Shown here: piece after piece, positions 40,253 to 51,619 of the stretch
Layout: every line of letters begins with the position of its first letter
Numbering within the stretch: position 1 is the first letter of the stretch
Assembly (NCBI GenBank): GCA_963825055.1
Contig: CAWGSK010000017.1
Location: forward strand, 23,236-87,235
Origin: an uncultured Gemmatimonadales bacterium
GTDB taxonomy: Bacteria > Gemmatimonadota > Gemmatimonadetes > Gemmatimonadales > GWC2-71-9
Direction: 5' to 3'
Length of the DNA: 64,000 nucleotides
Notes under the pieces: model-generated
Told to the model about the DNA's origin: nothing
Databases searched by the model: none
Seen by the model: the letters and a program-made list of their open reading frames with translations, nothing else
Program-made: the position numbers and the translations under genes

Positions 40253-41408
40253 TCACATCGGATACGCGTATCGCTCCAGCCACTGCAGGCCGTCGGCATC
40301 GGTCCGGGCGAGGTATACGCTTGTCCTGCCGAACGCCACGAGGCGCCGGTCGGCCGGCAGGATGACCCGTCGCAGGAGCACGCCGTTCCTGCCGAAGACA
40401 TCGTACGTGAGCGGCTCGCCCGCCGGACCGTAGCGCTCGACCCAGCCCTCGCCAGCGGGGCTCACCGACACGCCGCCGGCGCGGAAGGCCGGCTTGCTGT
40501 CGGGCCATTCGTAGCCGCTCAGGTCTTCGTCCCGCGGACGGCCACCGCGTCCGAGCGCGATGCTCCGGTTGCCGTTGTTGACTTCCACGGACACACTGAG
40601 CCCCGTCGAGGCGAGCTGGTCGACCCAGGCCTGCTTGTCCTTCTCACGGATCGGGACCGGCTTCCAGGCGACAGGCGTCCCACGCACCGTGCGCCCGTCT
40701 CGCAGGAGCCATTCGACGTGATAGTCGGCCGCGCGCACCAGGAAGACCGCGCCATCGTCGCCGACCGCCCAGCCATCGGATGGGCTGTACGGTACCGCAC
40801 GGAACTGCTGGCCCCGATTGTTCGGACCGCCGGTGGTGGTGACCTTTGTTGCGGGAAGGCCGACGCGGGCCACGGAATCGAACGAGGTCGCGCCGGGCGT
40901 CCACCGGACGACGGCCGCGCTGTCGCCGGTGGACGGTCCGCCGGGCCGGAAGTAGACACGGCCATTGCGGTCCGTGGCCTGCGGGAGGACGATGGTGAGC
41001 CCGCCCGGCCCGGCGCCGTCCATGGTGAGGCGGGTCGTGCGTCCCACGGCGCCGGCAGGGCCGAGGATGGACAACCGGGCATTCCCGAGGTCGACCAGCA
41101 GCGTCGAGTCACCGGGCCAGGCGAACAGCAGGTCGGGCAGCCGGTACTCGCCAGGCCCGCGGCCCTTCCGCCCGATCGGGCGTCATGCTGCCCTTGCCGA
41201 GGTCCACCACCGAGACCTGCTCGGCGATGCCGTCGCTCACCAGCACCCGGCCGCTGGGGAGTTCACGAATCCCGGAAATGGCGTCGAAGGATTTGTTCAC
41301 ACTGGCGGTCGGCGCGGTGAGCCGCACGGTCTTCGGGGCCGCCTGGGCGGCGAGGGCAGCGGGCACGGCGGCGAACAGCAGTACCACGATCGGACGATAG
41401 GACGGCAT
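40253..41408 (-). CDS. Secreted 6-bladed beta-propeller-like protein, frameshift near 41179
   Basis: Removing one base joins MPSYRPIVV...GKGSMTP to IGRKGRGPGEYRLP...; ends DADGLQWLERY. Confidence 0.75.
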
Positions 41409-41471
41409 CCGGTCTCCGGGGTGGGGGTCTGGGCTTTTGGATGCGTGAGGGGAGGGGAGGGTTGCAGGGGT

Positions 41472-41765
41472 GTCGAGGAGTCGAGGAGTCGAGGAGTCGA
41501 GGAGTCGAGGAGTCGCGGGGGCGATCCAGAGTGTTGTCATCCTGAGGGCCGTCAAGGCCCGAAGGATCTCGTCGGCCGCCCATCGAACTGCACCGGGCTT
41601 GCAAAGGCGTTCGATCCCGGGTTGGAAGATCCCTCGCTGGACGCTCGGGATGACACCGCTTCCTGACGCTACGCCGACCGCCCTGTTCTCGACCGCCCTG
41701 TTCCCGACCGCCCTGTTCCCGTCCGCCTGTCCGCCTGCCCGCCTGCCCGCCTGCCCGCCTGCCTA
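41472..41765. repeat. (GTCGAGGA)5 arm, REP-like inverted pair, C-rich (CCGCCTGC)n arm
   Basis: TGTCATCCTGAG...CGAAGGATCT (about 41537-41568) pairs with AGATCCCTCG...CTCGGGATGACA (about 41628-41655). Confidence 0.85.
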
Positions 41766-43928
41766 CTGCCCCTCCCTCACCGCCCTGATAATCTGAAACG
41801 GCGCGGGGTATTCGTGCAGCGGGCACCATGCCAGCGGTTCCGTTCCCTGTTCGAACGGTGCCAGGCTCACTTCGTCCTCGGGGCAATCCGGGCGGGCGAG
41901 GTATCCGGTCGACCGGTCGATCCGGACCCATGTAATGCCGGAGGGCTGGTCCCAGTCGGGGGCGTCGCGGTCCGCGTATTCCTGCTGCATGATTGCGGTC
42001 CAGACCGGGGCCGCGAGCCGGCCGCCCTGGGCGCCGGGGAAAATCGTCTCCCGGCGATCCATGCCGATCCAGACGCCGGTGACCAGGTCACGCGTGAAGC
42101 CGACGAACCAGACGTCCGCGTAGTCGTCGGATGTGCCGGTCTTCCCGCCGGCCGGCTGCCGGAAGCCCTGGCCGGTCACCGCGGAGTACGCGGTACCACG
42201 ACGCACGACGTCGCGCAGGGCCTGTGTCATGAGCCAGGCCTGGGCCTGATCCATGACTTCATGGCGGCGGGTGGCCGGTTCCCAGATGATGTTCCCGTCC
42301 CGGTCCTCCACCCGGAGAATGGCGCGTGGCTCCGAGCGCCAGCCATTGGCGGCGAACGCTGTATACGAGGCCACCAGCTCGATGGGCAGGACCTCCGCGG
42401 TGCCCAGCGCGATGGACGGCACCGCCGGGATGGGGGTGGTGATGCCGAAGCGGCGCGCCTCCGCCACCATGGCGCGCGGCCCGACGTCCATGCCCACCCG
42501 CGCGGTGACCACGTTGAGGGAGAGGTAGAGGCCCTCCCGGAGGCTGGCGGATTCCCGCTCGACCCTGTCGAAATTGCGGGGGCGCCACTCGGGTTCGTCC
42601 GCCCGCACGTCGGTCACGACAAACCCGGAGTCGCTCACCACCCGCGAGAGTGGCGCACCCTGCCGGAGCGCCGCCGAATAGACGAAGGGCTTGAAGGTGC
42701 TGCCCGGCTGCCGCAGCGCCTGGGTGGCGCGGTTGAACCGGTTGTCCGTGAAGTCGCGGCCGCCCACCATGGCCCGGATCGATCCGTCATTGGCGTCCAG
42801 GGTCAGCACCATGCCCTGGAGGTAGGGAGACGAACTCGAGCCTCCTGCGGTCCGGCCGGCGCGCAGGTAGTCGGCGTACGAGGGCCGACGGTAGTGGCCG
42901 TACCGTCCCCCCTCGATGCGCGTGAGTTGCCGCTCCAGCGCCGCCTCCGCTTCGTGCTGCCGGCGCAGGTCCAGGGTCGTGTAGATCCGGAGGCCATCGG
43001 TGTAGATGCGGTCGCCAAAACGCGCCTCTACGATCCGGCGGACATGTTCCACGAACCACGGCGCCTCCGTCCGCCCCCCGACTTCCGGCGCCAGCCGGAC
43101 CGGCCGGGCCTTCCAGCGGTCGGCGGCCTCCCGGTCGAGGTACCCGCTCCGGGCCATGAGGTCGATGACCAGGTTGCGGCGCTGGAGCGCGCGCGCCGGA
43201 TACCGCCGCGGGTTGTAGTAGGTCGGTGCCTTGGGCAGGGCGGCGATCAGCGCAGCCTCACCGACATCGAGGTCGGCCGCATGCTTGCCGAACAGGTCCC
43301 GCGCCGCGGCCTCCACGCCGAAGACCTCGCCGCCGAGCGGTATCTGGTTCAGGTAGAGTTCGAGGATGCGGGACTTGGTGAGGTGGTGTTCCAGGCCCCA
43401 CGCGACCTGCATCTCCCGGATCTTGCGCGCGAGCGACCGTTCCCGGCCTCCCAGCCGGTCGGGCCAGAGGTTTCGGGCCAGCTGCATGGTGATGGTGGAG
43501 AAGCCCTCGGCGTAGCGGAAGTGGACAACATTGGCCCACAGCGCGCCGAAGATGCGTGGATAGTCCACGCCGTGGTGGCGGTAGAATCGCCGGTCCTCGG
43601 TGGCGACGATGGCGGCCTGCATGGCCGGGCTGATCCCGTCCAGCGGCACGACGGTACGCTGCACGCCGAGGCGCGAGAGCACCTGTCCGTCGGCGGCGAG
43701 GATTTCGCTGCGCTCGTGCAATGAGAGCCGCGCGAGGACGCTCGACGTGGCGTCGCAACGGCCATGGGCGCAGGCCGCGATCCACGCGCCCAGGATGATC
43801 GCGAAGACCAGGGCCACGGAGCCCGTGGCGGCGGCGAGGGCACGCTGACGCCGGACCGGATCCGCCGTCCACCGCACCACCGCCCTCCGGCCCAGCCGCC
43901 AGCGCGCCCCCCATCGCATGTTCTGCAT
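41763..43928 (-). CDS. Class A penicillin-binding protein (PBP1A-type)
   Basis: TEDRRFY, GFSTITMQLARN, RKIRE, GSTFKPF (SxxK), SLN, KTG. Confidence 0.95.
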   Translation of the reverse strand: MQNMRWGARWRLGRRAVVRWTADPVRRQRALAAATGSVALVFAIILGAWIAACAHGRCDATSSVLARLSLHERSEILAADGQVLSRLGVQRTVVPLDGISPAMQAAIVATEDRRFYRHHGVDYPRIFGALWANVVHFRYAEGFSTITMQLARNLWPDRLGGRERSLARKIREMQVAWGLEHHLTKSRILELYLNQIPLGGEVFGVEAAARDLFGKHAADLDVGEAALIAALPKAPTYYNPRRYPARALQRRNLVIDLMARSGYLDREAADRWKARPVRLAPEVGGRTEAPWFVEHVRRIVEARFGDRIYTDGLRIYTTLDLRRQHEAEAALERQLTRIEGGRYGHYRRPSYADYLRAGRTAGGSSSSPYLQGMVLTLDANDGSIRAMVGGRDFTDNRFNRATQALRQPGSTFKPFVYSAALRQGAPLSRVVSDSGFVVTDVRADEPEWRPRNFDRVERESASLREGLYLSLNVVTARVGMDVGPRAMVAEARRFGITTPIPAVPSIALGTAEVLPIELVASYTAFAANGWRSEPRAILRVEDRDGNIIWEPATRRHEVMDQAQAWLMTQALRDVVRRGTAYSAVTGQGFRQPAGGKTGTSDDYADVWFVGFTRDLVTGVWIGMDRRETIFPGAQGGRLAAPVWTAIMQQEYADRDAPDWDQPSGITWVRIDRSTGYLARPDCPEDEVSLAPFEQGTEPLAWCPLHEYPAPFQIIRAVREGQ

Positions 43929-43994
43929 ACCATACTATGGGGGGCGCGCTGTTTCCGGGCGATGATGCGGCTCACCTGCCGGGAGGGGGCTGGG

Positions 43995-45782
43995 TCACGG
44001 CGGGCCGGCGTCCTCCACCAGCAGCCACCCGGCGATCCAGTCGACCACGGGGGGGTCGCCTTCCCGGACGTTGAGGTCGGTGATCCGGAGTTCGGCGGTC
44101 ACCCCGGCGCTGGATCGTCTCACCCGCAGGTCGGTCCGGCTCGTGTCCGGCCGGGGAAATCCCGACGCCCGGAGGTCGGTCACGATGGAGTCCACCGGGA
44201 GGCGAAGGACGAGCGCGCCGTCCCGGAGCAGGTGGTAGCTGGAGGTCGCGCTGTCCCAGGCGGCAACCATTCCGGGGGCCACCCGCGCGGTATCCCGCCG
44301 TGCCCGCTCCAGGGGGGTGAGCCAGGTGAAACCGGCCAGGTCCACCGGCCCCCGCGGTGCGGCCACGTTCCAGCTGAGCCGCCCCTCGCCCGGCATCTCA
44401 TAGCGCTGCACGTAGTCGAGCCCGAGTGCCGCCATGATGGCCTGCGCGTGATAGTCGCCGGTGCGCCGTACGGGGAGGGAGTCGGTGACGCGGAGGGTGT
44501 CGTTGAACAGCGGCTGGACCGCGTCGAGCCCATGGGTTCCGGTCAGGTAGCGGAGAGTGGCGGCAATCTCCCGGCGGTCCTCGAAGGACACGGGAGCTGC
44601 CGGCTTGCGTACCGTGCCGTCTTCCAGCATGGCATTCCGCTCGAGGATCGTCACAAGACGGTGGCGCTGGCTTCGCTCGGAGACGCGGTAGGCTCCCCAG
44701 GGGCCCGCAAACGTGATCAGCGCCAGCCCCAGCAGGGACGCCGGGATGAGCCTGATGTCCTGGCTGCGGCGAATCCCGTAATAGAGGGCAATGCCCGTGA
44801 GCCAGAGCGAGAGCACGGCGAGGAAGTACCGCTGCTCGGTCACGCCGTACTGGCCGATCCGCTTGCCGATGGCGAGCCAGAGCATCCCGAGGGACGGCAG
44901 CAGTGCCAGGTAGAACCCCCGGGCGAACGTGCTGATCCAGCGGTTTTCCTTGCGGGTGGCGATCGGGTACACCAGCAACAGGGCCAGGATCCCGACCACG
45001 GCCACGCAGGAGACCAGCCACCCGATCCAGCCGCTGGGCCAGACGCGGGTGACGATGATCTTGATCATGTAGGTCGTGAGGATGGCGATGTACACCACCA
45101 CGATCGGAATCAGCACGTACTGGGCGAACGGCTTGAGTCCCGGCGGGTAGGCGGATTCCCCCTCCAGCGCGTCGAGCCGCTCCGGTACCCCCGCCAGGAA
45201 AAACCACGTATTGAAGAGGATGCCCACCGTCAGGACCAGCCGGACGTAGGTATCGCCGCTGACGTCCACGCCCAGCAGCTTGTCGATGGCCCCGAGGGCA
45301 AGCGCGAGCCCGAGAACGAGGACGAACGAATAGAGCGCCGCGGTCAGGAACCGGGTGAACAGGGCCAGGTTGAATTGCCAGAATCCGTTGAGCTGCCGGT
45401 CCCCCAGCCAGGGGAGCACCGCGACCATGAGATGGAAAGCGACGGCGAGCTGCACCGAGCGGCTGGCCCGCACGGGGTCGGTCCAGTCCGGCCAGGCCAG
45501 GAAATAGGAGGCCAGCACGCCGGCACCCGCTGCCACGACCAGGATCCTGACGGCCGTCGTGCTGCGGCGCCGTTCCGAGGTGAACGCGAGCGCCGTGAAG
45601 AGCGGGATGCCCAGCAGGGCCATGAGCAGGAGGCGGAGTCCATGCTGGCCGTCGGTACCGACGAGCCGGTATCCGGCGATGGTCGCGACGAGGGCCGAAA
45701 CGAGTGTTGCGGGGAATCGCTGCAGGGTACGTGCGGCGCTGGTGAGCAGCACCTCAACGGAAGGCAGTCGCATTGGCGGCAC
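43995..45782 (-). CDS. DUF4153-family polytopic membrane protein
   Basis: About 10 TM segments; RIGQYGVTEQRY, GPWGAYRVSERSQ. Confidence 0.8.
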   Translation of the reverse strand: MPPMRLPSVEVLLTSAARTLQRFPATLVSALVATIAGYRLVGTDGQHGLRLLLMALLGIPLFTALAFTSERRRSTTAVRILVVAAGAGVLASYFLAWPDWTDPVRASRSVQLAVAFHLMVAVLPWLGDRQLNGFWQFNLALFTRFLTAALYSFVLVLGLALALGAIDKLLGVDVSGDTYVRLVLTVGILFNTWFFLAGVPERLDALEGESAYPPGLKPFAQYVLIPIVVVYIAILTTYMIKIIVTRVWPSGWIGWLVSCVAVVGILALLLVYPIATRKENRWISTFARGFYLALLPSLGMLWLAIGKRIGQYGVTEQRYFLAVLSLWLTGIALYYGIRRSQDIRLIPASLLGLALITFAGPWGAYRVSERSQRHRLVTILERNAMLEDGTVRKPAAPVSFEDRREIAATLRYLTGTHGLDAVQPLFNDTLRVTDSLPVRRTGDYHAQAIMAALGLDYVQRYEMPGEGRLSWNVAAPRGPVDLAGFTWLTPLERARRDTARVAPGMVAAWDSATSSYHLLRDGALVLRLPVDSIVTDLRASGFPRPDTSRTDLRVRRSSAGVTAELRITDLNVREGDPPVVDWIAGWLLVEDAGPP

Positions 45783-45833
45783 GCCCGTCTCTATGAAGGA
45801 TGTGGGCTAACGTGCGGCCGGGACCACGGCTGG

Positions 45834-46496
45834 TCAAGGGTCCGGTGGTATCGGCTCCCCGTCGTCCGTGGCGAGTTCCATCAGGAGGGCGAAGCGGATC
45901 AGGCCCCCATCCGACTCGATTCCCAGTGTCCGGCGGATGTTCCGCCGGTGGAAATGTACGGTATGCACGCTGACGCCGAGTTCGTCCGCGATCTCCTCGG
46001 ACGAGCGGCCCGCGGCGATCGACCGCATGATGGCCTGCTGGCGCGGCGTGAGACGATGCCAGGCCCGGGACGTGGGGCTGGTCGGGCCCGCCCCCGAATG
46101 CGGGTGAATGCGGGGCGAGAGGTAGGTTTCCCCCCGGATGACCCGTTCGATGGCCTCGGCGAGTTCGTCCACCCCGCAGTCCTTCGGCATGAAGCCAAGC
46201 GCGCCGAGCGAGAACGCCGCCTTCGCGAGCACGTAGTCCGTGTGCATGGTGACCACCAGGATCGCGGTTCCTGGGGCCTCGCGACGCACCTCGGGGATCA
46301 GGTCGAGGCCGTTCCGCCCCGGGAGGGAGAGGTCGAGCACCAGCACGTCGGGACGGTGCTCGCGGACGGCCGCCGGGACGGCCGTGCCATCCCGGACCGG
46401 CCCCGTCACCTCGTACATGGTCGCGAGCAGGGCCCGGAGCCCCTGTCCGACCATCTCATGGTCTTCCGCGAGCAGGAGGTGCTTTCGTGATGTCAT
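45834..46496 (-). CDS. NarL/LuxR-family response regulator
   Basis: LAEDH, VLDLSLP, FMPK, LTPRQ...IADELGVSVHTVHFHRRNI. Confidence 0.95.
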   Translation of the reverse strand: MTSRKHLLLAEDHEMVGQGLRALLATMYEVTGPVRDGTAVPAAVREHRPDVLVLDLSLPGRNGLDLIPEVRREAPGTAILVVTMHTDYVLAKAAFSLGALGFMPKDCGVDELAEAIERVIRGETYLSPRIHPHSGAGPTSPTSRAWHRLTPRQQAIMRSIAAGRSSEEIADELGVSVHTVHFHRRNIRRTLGIESDGGLIRFALLMELATDDGEPIPPDP

Positions 46497-47266
46497 GCGC
46501 GCTCCCTGAGCGGGAATGAGGCGACGATGCTGGTGCCCTCACCGGGAATGGATTCAACGCCCGTCGTGCCGCCGAGCTGGCGGACCCGCTCCTGCATCGT
46601 GAGCAGGCCCAGACCGGTCGCGTCCATGCCCTCGGTCGAACGGGCCCCCACCTCGAAGCCCCGCCCCCGGTCGCTGACGGTCAGGTCGACACGGTCCTTC
46701 AGTTGGACGACCCTCACGGCCGCCTCCTGCACTCCGGAGTGGAGGGCCACGTTCCGGATGGCTTCCTGGGTAACGCGATACAGGGCCAGGGCCACCGGGC
46801 CGGGAACATCGCCCTCCAGGGCGACGTCGAGGGTGACGTGAAGGCCATGCAGTTCAAGCGCCTCGCCGGCGAGCTGCTCCAGGCTGACCCGCAGTCCACC
46901 GTGGTCCAGCGTGGCGGGATGGAGCCGGTGGGCGAGCTGGCGGAGCGCCACGCTCAGGTCCACGATCTCCTCCTCGAGCCCCCGCATTCGCCGTCGCTGG
47001 GCTTCCGGCAGATCGGGCGCCGCACTCAGGCAAAGCGAAACCTCATGGCGCAGCACCGCAAGCCGCTGAACCGCGTCATCGTGCACCTCGCGCGCCACCC
47101 ATGCGCGTTCCTCCTCCTGGACGTCCAGGAGGCGCTGCCCATAGGTGCGATGCAGCCCCCTGAACCGGCGCTGGGCAATGACCAGCGCGGTGCCGAGGGC
47201 CGCAAGCATGACCGTCAGGCCGATGGCAAAGACGACGAAGAACGTTTCGAGCGGCGTGGTGTCCAC
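46493..47266 (-). CDS. HisKA_3 histidine kinase with one TM and no sensor domain
   Basis: EERAWVAREVHD, QEAIRNVALHS, DRGRGF, GLGLLTMQERV. Confidence 0.93.
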   Translation of the reverse strand: MDTTPLETFFVVFAIGLTVMLAALGTALVIAQRRFRGLHRTYGQRLLDVQEEERAWVAREVHDDAVQRLAVLRHEVSLCLSAAPDLPEAQRRRMRGLEEEIVDLSVALRQLAHRLHPATLDHGGLRVSLEQLAGEALELHGLHVTLDVALEGDVPGPVALALYRVTQEAIRNVALHSGVQEAAVRVVQLKDRVDLTVSDRGRGFEVGARSTEGMDATGLGLLTMQERVRQLGGTTGVESIPGEGTSIVASFPLRERA

Positions 47267-47892
47267 GGGCGGGACATCCCCCAGGCGATCGTGAGATAGG
47301 AAAACATGAACAGGATCGACCGGAGACTGAAGATCAGCACGAGCGCCGCGCGATCGTCGCCGGCGAGGAGTGCGGCCGGTTCATAGGCAGCCAGTGCGAT
47401 CGCGTAGCCCGCGAGGCCGATACACGTCCAGAACCAGTCGGTGGTCTGGTGCGCCCGGGTGGCCGGCCCGAACGACCGCCGCAGGAGGGTCCAGAGCGCC
47501 ACAGTCAGCAGGACCACCGCGTCGAGCGGTGAGGCGAACCGGCTGAAGTTAGTGAGGTCTTCCAGGCGGAGGGCAACAAACAACCGGACCGCGAGATAGA
47601 ACGGGATCGTGACGCGGATGGTGATCCGTTCCGGAGCCGTGAGTTGCCACTGCGAGAGGCCCACGAGCACGCAGGCCCCGGTCAGCGGGGAGGCGAAGTA
47701 GTCGATCCAGAGGTTGTTGGTCCGATGGATTGCCAGCCAGACCCCGAGGAGGTCGGCCAGGAAGTTGATCAGGAACCCGGCCCCGATCCAGAGTCGCGCG
47801 CGGGTCCGCTGGCGCTGGAGCGCCACGGCCAGCGGCACGAGGCCGCCGGCCGTGATGCTCACCAGGAACAGGACGATGATCGGAGTGATCAC
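47215..47892 (-). CDS. Polytopic membrane protein (about 7 TM)
   Basis: Hydrophobic throughout; NNLWI, FWTCIGL; SD-like sequence weak; overlaps kinase start. Confidence 0.8.
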   Translation of the reverse strand: MITPIIVLFLVSITAGGLVPLAVALQRQRTRARLWIGAGFLINFLADLLGVWLAIHRTNNLWIDYFASPLTGACVLVGLSQWQLTAPERITIRVTIPFYLAVRLFVALRLEDLTNFSRFASPLDAVVLLTVALWTLLRRSFGPATRAHQTTDWFWTCIGLAGYAIALAAYEPAALLAGDDRAALVLIFSLRSILFMFSYLTIAWGMSRPWTPRRSKRSSSSLPSA

Positions 47893-47904
47893 GGCCCAGG
47901 AGGC

Positions 47905-48129
47905 TCAGGCCGCCGTGGCGACATGGTCATGGACACCGTCCTGAGTCAGGGCACTCGAAGGCGAACAGAACGGCGGACAGGGCCACCCCTCCTGAAGCAG
48001 TGCGCCGGCGGTCTGGTCCTCACCGTGAGCATTCACCCCCACCAGCACGAGATGCAGGGCGCCGGCGCTGTCGTGCCCGGGATAGATCCGAACCGCGGCG
48101 CAGCCGGCCTGGTCCAGCATGGCCGCCAC
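47905..48129 (-). CDS. Small PCPPxC-motif protein, possibly N-terminally truncated
   Basis: QAGCAAVRIYPG...LVLVGVN...GED...PCPPFCSPSSAL; frame stays open upstream (GGLFHRAPV) into a repeat tract. Confidence 0.7.
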   Translation of the reverse strand: MAAMLDQAGCAAVRIYPGHDSAGALHLVLVGVNAHGEDQTAGALLQEGWPCPPFCSPSSALTQDGVHDHVATAA

Positions 48130-48172
48130 CGGCGCCCGGTGGAACAGTCCCCCTCCTCCGCCACCCCCTTCC

Positions 48173-48250
48173 GGGCGGACAGGGCGGACAGGCGGACAGG
48201 GCGGACAGGCGGACAGGCGGACAGGCGGACAGGCGGACAGGCGGACAGGC
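48173..48250. repeat. (GGCGGACA)n tract
   Basis: Read directly. Confidence 0.9.
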
Positions 48251-48365
48251 CGACGTTCGAACTGTTGCGCGAGTGCCCTATCAAGACTGGCAGCTTGTAA
48301 GCCTCTGTCTCACCCATAAATACTAAAGCCGTTCGGTATTCGAGCTACCCCGACCGGTCCCAGTC

Positions 48366-48656
48366 ATGAGCCTGCGCTTTCACATACAGTTCATTCGTCG
48401 TCACGCCTCGGAGGGCGGGCAACCGGAAATTACCCACATCGGCGGACGGCACCCGGACGGCGGAAGGTGGACGCTGACCCGGGAGGAGGCCATCCGCGCC
48501 ATCGAGGGCGGCGCGTGGCAGTTCTATGTCAGTCGGGGCTCCAAGTCTGCCGACGTCATCGTGGTGGAACGGGATGGCCGGAAGGTACTCGAGACCAATG
48601 CCGGTGGAACTGCCGCGCACGACCTGAGCCTCGCCCGGTTCGACACCGGAGACTGA
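48366..48656 (+). CDS. DUF3892-like protein
   Basis: ITHIGG...WTLTREEAIRAIE...FYV...GRKVLET...DLSL. Confidence 0.75.
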   Translation: MSLRFHIQFIRRHASEGGQPEITHIGGRHPDGGRWTLTREEAIRAIEGGAWQFYVSRGSKSADVIVVERDGRKVLETNAGGTAAHDLSLARFDTGD

Positions 48657-48817
48657 CCCGGAGGGGCCGCCCCCGGGAAGCGGGAACGTTCCGCTACATT
48701 TCCTGCACACATCCTGCGTCCAGAGTCCGGGCGGACCGCATTCCAATGCGCCGCCCGGCGCACTGGCGCTACGCGCCCGGGAGGACATGACAGCGGGACG
48801 AAAGGAGGCGACTGCCG

Positions 48818-50815: not shown

Positions 50816-50920
50816 GTGGTTGAGTCGTTGAGTCGCATTTTCGGGCTGCCCGACTGCCCGACTGCCCGACTGCCCGACTGCCCGCCCGACCGCCCGACCG
50901 CCTGTCCGCCCGTCCGCCTG
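50745..50920. repeat. Bipartite (GTTGAGTC/GTCGCGGG)n then (GACTGCCC)n
   Basis: Read directly; overlaps the 3' end of the upstream CDS. Confidence 0.8.
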
Positions 50921-51031
50921 CAAGGGAACTTTAGTTCCTTCTTTTTCACACCCGGTGGCGTAGGGTGGTGTACAGGTTCACCCGGCATGCGGAGGCCACG
51001 AGCCGCCGCCACCCTTCAGATGGAGTTACCC

Positions 51032-51619
51032 ATGTCAGTCCTGCGCGCGGCACGTGCCCTCATCCTGGCCTCGGCCGCCCTGGCGGCGGCCTCACCCCTG
51101 GCTGCCCAGGCCCACGAACACGTCCAGGGAATGACCCATTCGGACAACGCGATGGCGGATGCTCCCGTCTCACCGGGCCAGGCCGCCTACGGAGCCATCG
51201 CCGAGGTCGTGGCGCGGCTCGACGCCGATCCGTCCACCGACTGGTCTAAGGTCAACATCGAGACCTTGCGGCAGCACCTGATCGACATGGACAACGTGAC
51301 GATGCGCAGCCGGGTCGTCTCCCGGGACGTGCCGGGTGGCTTCACCGCCGAGGTGACGGGTGACGGGCCGGTGGTGGATGCGATCCGCCGCATGACCACC
51401 GCGCACGCGAAGCAGCTGGCGAAGGACGGAACGATGAAGGCGGAGGTCACGGAGATTCCAGGTGGCGTCCGGATGACGGTCCTGAACGCCGATCCGGGGG
51501 ATGCCCGGTCCGTTGCCCGGCTCCGCGGGCTCGGCTTTGCCGGCGTGATGACGCTGGGGAACCATCATGGCCCGCACCACGAGATGCTGGCGCGGGGAGT
51601 GAATGTGCACGGGAAGTAA
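51032..51619 (+). CDS. Secreted His/Met-rich hypothetical protein
   Basis: Signal peptide; AHEHVQGMTH; LRQHLIDM; HHGPHHEMLARG. Confidence 0.8.
   Translation: MSVLRAARALILASAALAAASPLAAQAHEHVQGMTHSDNAMADAPVSPGQAAYGAIAEVVARLDADPSTDWSKVNIETLRQHLIDMDNVTMRSRVVSRDVPGGFTAEVTGDGPVVDAIRRMTTAHAKQLAKDGTMKAEVTEIPGGVRMTVLNADPGDARSVARLRGLGFAGVMTLGNHHGPHHEMLARGVNVHGK

Follow-up and report, generated by a model that had tools for sequence, protein, structure and literature searches.

In a 64,000-nucleotide stretch of DNA from an uncultured Gemmatimonadales bacterium (GenBank assembly GCA_963825055.1, contig CAWGSK010000017.1; the whole stretch is called the window below), four genes encode, in this order, a small protein with a CPPxC tail, a seven-helix membrane protein (7TM), a histidine kinase and a NarL/LuxR-type response regulator (Table 1). 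We find that this cassette is real, conserved and uncharacterised, that its genes are linked far above chance in at least three phyla, and that it belongs with those HisKA_3/NarL two-component systems that have accessory proteins, and is not an agr, ComQXPA or rhodopsin system. In our estimate the chances are about even that its sensor is split across three proteins, namely the small protein, the 7TM and the single helix of the kinase.

In the mechanism that we propose, the folded CPPxC protein would attach, on the outer side, to a 7TM that is shaped like a G-protein-coupled receptor (GPCR), presenting to this receptor a loop closed by a C90-C94 disulfide. Inside the membrane, the 7TM would hand the signal on to the one helix of the kinase, and the kinase, itself without a sensor, would then phosphorylate the NarL-type regulator. 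We regard the step from the 7TM to the kinase helix as quite probable, given the gene coupling, the modularity described below and the analogy to sensory rhodopsin II and its partner HtrII. To the idea that the 7TM has the small protein as its dedicated input, on the outer side, we give even odds.

The two unnamed protein families make up a portable module that provides input to histidine kinases in three phyla or more. Should the small protein be a ligand, the cassette would be an example of a bacterial receptor of GPCR shape whose protein ligand is encoded beside it, and of signalling by peptides or proteins beyond the Gram-positive models. Culturable Flavobacterium species have the small protein, so the cassette is open to experiment.

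Table 1. Features of the cassette in the window (strand as in the window)
Feature	Position	Strand	Remark
Small CPPxC-tail gene remnant	47905-48129	-	74 aa from first GTG
Seven-helix membrane protein (7TM), unnamed family	47215-47892	-	225 aa
Histidine kinase, HisKA_3 + HATPase_c	46493-47266	-	257 aa
NarL/LuxR-type response regulator, receiver + GerE helix-turn-helix	45834-46496	-	220 aa
Tandem array, ~10 GGCGGACA units	48174-48254	no strand	position expected for the 5' part of the small gene

Linkage of the cassette and the 7TM-kinase junction

By their coordinates, the four co-directional open reading frames (ORFs) are spaced by a 12-bp gap and then by overlaps of 52 bp and 4 bp, as the initial annotation had described, and the last of these overlaps, between kinase and regulator, reads ATGA. 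The kinase consists of a short N-terminus, one hydrophobic helix (residues 12-30), a coiled linker, and HisKA_3 (E 1e-8; His62) and HATPase_c (E 2e-12) as its only Pfam domains, both above cut-off, which confirms the earlier description of a kinase with one transmembrane helix and no input domain. It adjoins a regulator composed of Response_reg and GerE, again both above the Pfam cut-off, and this is the pairing that defines a two-component system of the HisKA_3/NarL type.

By profile searches, the small gene and the 7TM gene are found in the identical 31 of 201 genomes of this phylum, and neither is found in the remaining 170. The phylum set comprises 39 loci (some genomes are counted twice, and the window's own locus is included); where at least 300 bp of room were available, 36 of 37 had a 7TM behind the small gene, and 29 of 34 had a kinase of this type as well. 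Three Bacteroidota-type sequences served to seed a scan of metagenomes, in which 134 stretches were confirmed and the best 80 kept, and a profile made from this phylum's 7TMs alone already matched 55 of these 80. After profile iteration, the 7TM lay next to the small gene in 68 of the 69 metagenome loci with at least 300 bp of room, and all four genes stood in order in 39 of the 42 with at least 2300 bp. Members of the small-protein cluster bear the names Chitinophagales, Cyclobacteriaceae and Flavobacterium, and one relative is labelled Gemmatimonadales. The suggestion that an unnamed signalling cassette of this kind recurs in Bacteroidota is thus borne out by the metagenome loci and by these names. 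In a third phylum, which we take to be Acidobacteriota from a Pyrinomonadaceae genome, the small gene is present in 6 of 151 genomes, with the 7TM next to it in all 6. The small protein does accompany the 7TM/kinase pair.

An all-against-all comparison of ORFs from 70 longer loci revealed no further recurring gene, and specifically no exporter, processing or substrate-supplying gene; the large clusters in this comparison are opposite-strand frames of the cassette genes, as judged by coordinates. Some genomes hold unusual arrangements. Four diverged cassettes are present in one genome (G127; L150, L185, L186, L187), one of them cut short beside a candidate insertion-sequence ORF and another with frame breaks, and in G007 (L191:3193-5707) three 7TM genes together with one full and one 5'-truncated small gene stand before a single kinase.

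In the literature covered, subscription papers excepted, no title or abstract opening describes the cassette, and it is not described in passages of PMC13581589 and PMC12419801, although the lists of 7TM models in PMC13581589 may include members of the family. What is new here is the CPPxC form and its occurrence in three phyla, together with the fixed position at which the kinase start codon overlaps the 7TM gene, the swapping of kinase classes and the truncated gene of this lineage.

The junction between the 7TM and the kinase is conserved in a peculiar manner. The kinase lies in the -1 frame relative to the 7TM in 75 of 80 scored junctions, none of the 75 being fused, and the two are separate ORFs in all 80, which disposes of the concern that they might be a single ORF split by a sequencing error. 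In one further locus (L068) the 7TM and the kinase start share one ORF that is followed by a frame break, but this case is uncertain. In the window, the GTG start of the kinase is in the -1 frame and falls within a Trp codon that comes after helix 7 in the 7TM gene, and across the family the start overlaps a Trp or Cys codon just past helix 7 in 66 of 74 junctions, while the 7TM frame continues for a few to about 30 codons beyond it. The base C precedes this overlapping codon in 1/20 and 0/45 loci (8 loci have no such codon), compared with 116/194 (60%) and 29/186 (16%) for other Trp and Cys codons. Such avoidance is what selection for a start codon would produce if the base has to form ATG, GTG or TTG, and the position of the start is constant from 25% to 75% GC. 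A programmed -1 frameshift that would fuse the 7TM to the kinase was considered and rejected, since a slippery heptamer is present in only 9 of 74 junctions, since the start codon is under selection and since both chains are predicted to have their N-termini outside. No 7TM fused into a protein of 434-2000 residues was found among 7997 candidates, which is weak evidence.

The small gene, the 7TM and the N-terminal kinase helix precede not only HisKA_3 kinases, but also PAS/GAF kinases and one HisKA kinase, and the longer PAS/GAF kinases and the HisKA-class kinase retain the same helix and the same junction. Five more kinases from the third phylum match the HisKA_3-type profile weakly and look like another class. 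Since helix and junction stay the same across kinase classes, the small gene, the 7TM and one helix behave like a module that is plugged into different kinases.

The 7TM protein and comparable membrane sensors

The model of a relative's 7TM has seven helices (pLDDT, the predicted local distance difference test, 93.7; predicted template-modelling score, pTM, 0.90), and the window protein aligns to the family across 199 columns (prob 99.25). The structures that match the model best are microbial rhodopsins, GPCRs and GPCR-like folds, along about 200 of its 211 residues (best match Z 12.9, root-mean-square deviation, rmsd, 4.4, 202 aligned), such that a rhodopsin/GPCR-type fold of seven helices is predicted; fold scores of this kind show no function. 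The counts of Lys and Arg (1.5-2.2 per odd loop and C-terminus, versus 0.2-0.9 per even loop and N-terminus) predict an N-out/C-in topology. The kinase chain is likewise predicted to be N-out, with an acidic outer N-terminus of roughly 10 residues. The proposal in the initial annotation that sensing falls to the 7TM is consistent with this fold and with the bare kinase.

The 7TM has no match in Pfam, either singly or as a 52-member family (scattered hits occur in 1-2 members), and in NCBIfam the window protein has two hits only, both far below cut-off. Among solved structures the 7TM profile had one weak hit, alkaline ceramidase 3 (E 0.095), which was set aside because the helix-7 His is present in only 26 of 52 family members.

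Sensory rhodopsin II of Natronomonas pharaonis, a seven-helix protein that works with the separate membrane-anchored transducer HtrII and feeds a two-component pathway, as passages of PMC5292967 and PMC12917780 describe it, is among the closest parallels for the arrangement. As in that pair, the cassette has a seven-helix protein with a separate membrane partner, and rhodopsins are among the best fold matches of the 7TM. However, the partner here is a histidine kinase with one helix, whereas HtrII is a chemotaxis transducer with two, and a dedicated small protein is encoded ahead in the cassette. Furthermore, the 7TM lacks a conserved retinal lysine: no single helix-7 column has Lys in more than 11 of 52 proteins, and helix 7 of the window protein has none. 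The 7TM hence shares the modelled seven-helix fold with the microbial (type 1) rhodopsins, but not their helix-7 retinal lysine. Some metagenome 7TMs carry a Lys late in helix 7 (11/52 at position 198, 7 at position 197), near the retinal site of rhodopsins.

A second type of precedent is provided by SaePQRS of Staphylococcus aureus, where a kinase with almost no extracytoplasmic part is co-encoded with a membrane protein and a small exported protein. LiaFSR of Bacillus subtilis is a two-component system with an accessory protein, according to passages of PMC3543457. As in these systems, the cassette co-encodes a sensor-poor kinase with a membrane protein, and LiaS is among the NCBIfam neighbours of the kinase, below cut-off. 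In contrast to them, the cassette kinase has one helix where theirs have two, and the accessory membrane protein has a GPCR-type seven-helix model. In the family libraries, the accessory proteins of the cassette have neither a Pfam match nor an NCBIfam match above cut-off that would tie them to SaeP, SaeQ or LiaF.

The small CPPxC protein and its possible roles

The small protein belongs to a family of at least 816 representatives or clusters at 50% identity (E 0.001), of which the best 150 representatives were examined. Relatives have about 98-135 residues, and in them an N-terminal arm, a helix and a strand precede the part that is kept in the window. A full-length relative is modelled with a pLDDT of 92.9 as helix-strand-helix-four strands (2 helices, 5 strands), and the CPPxC tail is modelled inside this fold (strands 83-90, pLDDT about 85-93), so that on the model the usual form of the protein is a compactly folded domain with about 100 residues. 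All 89 single-domain sequences of 90-160 residues have one CPxxC, and among 55 long, mostly two-domain proteins, 28 have two, 24 have one and 3 have none. In Pfam there is no family match, singly or as an 87-member family (scattered hits in 1-2 members), and in NCBIfam none among 52 small proteins. The Foldseek search with the model gave nothing at E 0.001, VIA-align nothing clear (best Z 3.6, rmsd 3.7, 49 aligned, CopG) and the profile search of solved structures a best E of 0.43; a thioredoxin fold was listed in none of the fold searches, nor was there a Pfam match to it. The fold is possibly undescribed, though failed searches do not show novelty.

Three lines of evidence favour the small protein as an input to the 7TM from outside. 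First, clear signal or lipoprotein peptides are found in 4 of 100 cassette-encoded copies, all of them in intact cassettes (L034, L089, L111, L123), which speaks for action on the outer side. Second, two genomes (G087 and G177), both with a full cassette elsewhere, hold extra 7TM-7TM-kinase-regulator units without a small gene (L183:1837-3368, L184:3585-4891). Third, the divergence of the small protein tracks that of the 7TM and of the kinase helix more than that of the regulator. For this comparison of distances, the contributions of the kinase core and the regulator were removed, and 10 near-duplicates were dropped from 56 sets. The partial correlations are 0.35 with the 7TM, 0.33 with the kinase helix and -0.02 with the regulator in 21 cassettes of this phylum, and 0.19, 0.29 and -0.10, respectively, in 25 metagenome cassettes. 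A hydrophobic N-terminus is present in 26 of 87 single-domain representatives. Two loci (L087 and L103, the latter with two in tandem) encode two-domain small proteins with lipoprotein-like signals whose first domain is without a CPPxC tail.

Several points weigh against a split sensor with an external small protein. No signal peptide is present in 95 of the 100 cassette-encoded copies and no exporter recurs, such that most small proteins have no evident way out; we can only guess that these would leave the cytoplasm by lysis or non-classical export. In a protein that is probably cytoplasmic, three conserved cysteines would suit a function with thiols or metals equally well. In the metagenome set, the correlation of the small protein with the kinase core (0.24) is as high as that with the 7TM, and all of the partial correlations can stem from gene adjacency or kinship. 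None of the 201 genomes has only one of the two genes, 7TM or small, so genomes with the receiver alone are not shown to be stable, and the 7TM profile was built from genes adjoining small genes; related genomes are, besides, not independent of one another. As to the receptor, no Foldseek match of the 7TM model reached E 0.001 (best E 0.027), and Z values of 10-13 are middling for a helical bundle and may reflect a mere common arrangement. The 7TM family is moreover very divergent (median identity about 19%, no invariant residue), and for this reason no pocket can be named.

The initial annotation had offered a thiol-redox relay next to a ligand role, and of the two we favour a role as ligand or partner. 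As a cytoplasmic thiol or metal sensor using C49, C90 and C94, the small protein would dock on the inner face of the 7TM-kinase pair and relay the redox or metal state, which we regard as rather unlikely. It would suit the many copies without a signal peptide and the conservation of the cysteines in cassette copies (C49 in 49/52, C90 in 50/52, C94 in 50/52), and the CxxxC spacing recalls that of the Sco copper chaperones. However, C49 is replaced in 11 of 87 representatives, the conservation of an N-terminal His is confined to this phylum, the four signal-bearing copies stand in intact cassettes, and a seven-helix protein would be superfluous for a purely internal sensor.

Alternatively, the small protein could be an enzyme that makes or modifies a membrane-permeant molecule sensed by the 7TM. 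Since such an enzyme could work on either side of the membrane, this would reconcile the copies with and without signal peptides; the polar residues R53, Y55 and D77 are near-invariant in the family, and the retention of a single CPxxC in 24 of the 55 long forms is what would be expected for a redundant active site. We nonetheless consider an enzyme improbable, given that no enzyme family in Pfam, NCBIfam or PHROGs matches the protein, that the domain has only about 85 residues and that no substrate-supplying gene recurs in the 70 loci.

The reading put forward originally was that of an agr-like system. The agrBDCA operon of staphylococci consists of four co-directional genes including a small gene, a kinase and a regulator, and a Cys ring of five residues would have the ring size of agr peptides; in ComQXPA, ComP and ComA are a HisKA_3 kinase with NarL-type output. 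The ComQXPA system of Bacillus subtilis likewise comprises four co-directional genes including a small gene, a kinase and a regulator, as far as passages of PMC4008528 go. The cassette resembles ComQXPA in its four co-directional genes and in combining HisKA_3 with a NarL-type output, but the isoprenyl transferase ComQ was not found in the cassette operon (Pfam; 70 loci). It differs from both systems in having no modifying or exporting enzyme, in a small gene that encodes a folded domain of about 100 residues, in carrying sensor helices and kinase on separate chains, and in its hosts, which are diderm phyla. Unlike in agr, the regulator carries GerE and not LytTR, and the kinase has one helix instead of a polytopic sensor. 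Membership in agr is not supported: the 70 loci have no AgrB-like or exporter gene, the regulator is NarL-type and the small protein is folded rather than a short propeptide.

A weaker version of the agr-like reading, where the folded part would be a leader or self-processing domain from which a short C-terminal CPPxC peptide is excised as a diffusible signal, appears quite improbable to us. Variable residues do interleave the invariant C-P-x-x-C (entropy 3.2-3.8 bits at positions 86, 88 and 93), and a sister allele of the window's small gene, described below, retains the motif among its last codons. Loop positions elsewhere in the protein are, however, equally variable, the tail is modelled inside the fold, and no conserved peptidase gene, any more than an exporter gene, accompanies the 70 loci.

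Returning to the small protein as an external input, the most far-reaching version would be a form of protein-ligand signalling in diderms, in which a receptor with a GPCR fold recognises a disulfide-tailed protein that has been exported or set free by lysis, and connects by one helix to kinases that can be exchanged. Up to four paralogous cassettes per genome would then be separate channels, and the strain studied here would have lost the signal and kept the receptor. This extended picture is tentative, and we hold it to be doubtful.

Truncation of the small gene and surroundings of the cassette

The motifs GC..RIY, LVLVGV and PCPPFC are found in the window's small protein, yet the 74-residue form that the initial annotation described is not the natural form of the family but what is left of a 5'-truncated gene next to a tandem repeat. 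It covers only positions 41-112 of the 113 in the family profile. Of the other 39 matches, 36 begin between positions 6 and 15, and the remaining three begin at 24 and 74 or stop early. Furthermore, hhalign aligns it to the family (prob 99.6) only from family residue 28 onward. Family similarity extends in an open frame upstream of the ORF to about 48147-48156, which leaves the N-terminal ~30 residues, i.e., the arm and the first helix, missing; the gene has thus lost its first third. The claim that the small protein has no signal peptide can for this reason not be judged from the window copy, though it does hold for the 95 relatives mentioned above. An in-frame CTG at 48147 has a GGAGG motif 7 nt ahead of it (48147-48165, minus strand) and may be a weak alternative start (80 residues).

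We are fairly sure that the truncation is real. The 29-nt edge of the array occurs once in the assembly, and a sister-allele contig from run X1 (13 differences in 627 letters) joins 48040 straight to this same edge; on its shorter side this joint is covered by 30 letters, and run X1 may come from the source study. A profile of the N-terminal part matched nothing in the whole assembly (best E 0.47), while relatives were matched at E values down to 4e-18. In view of the contig and of the missing part being found nowhere else in the assembly, it is unlikely that misassembly at the repeat produced the truncation and that the organism has an intact small gene, even if the GGCGGACA unit forms 51 arrays (727 units) across the assembly and completeness and contamination of the genome stand at 87% and 6%. 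The sister allele has suffered a further loss of 130 bp, such that only its last ~45 codons, the CPPxC motif included, are kept. A 497-letter contig of run X5, from another study, matches the window up to 48147 and departs from it over the final 67 letters; no contig in runs X1-X4 spans 48092-48172, which proves nothing.

Judging from the letters of the kept part, the loss looks recent, because the conserved residues C49, R53, Y55, G70, D77, C90, P91 and C94 are all intact. This genome would have an intact receiver and is likely without a functional small protein, and for annotation purposes the 74-residue ORF is best handled as a truncated gene. The window contains many intergenic short tandem arrays with units of 7-9 bp (45 rows, 8751-53986), and arrays of this type may promote local deletions.

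No sigma-70-type promoter was found in 45600-48800. A divergent DUF3892 gene (48366-48656, plus strand) begins only about 110 bp past the GGCGGACA array, which leaves little room for a promoter of the cassette's own. Searches for phage, plasmid and viral contigs were empty, a scan of the genome contigs gave one match, which is unrelated, and no RNA holder is listed. Downstream of the regulator and in its orientation lie genes for a DUF4153 membrane protein and for a class A penicillin-binding protein (41763-45782, minus strand), a context that does not recur among relatives in the 70 longer loci. Three further ORFs have no Pfam match (50816-51619 on the plus strand, 40253-41074 and 41109-41555 on the minus strand), and the latter two may be a single gene in two frames.

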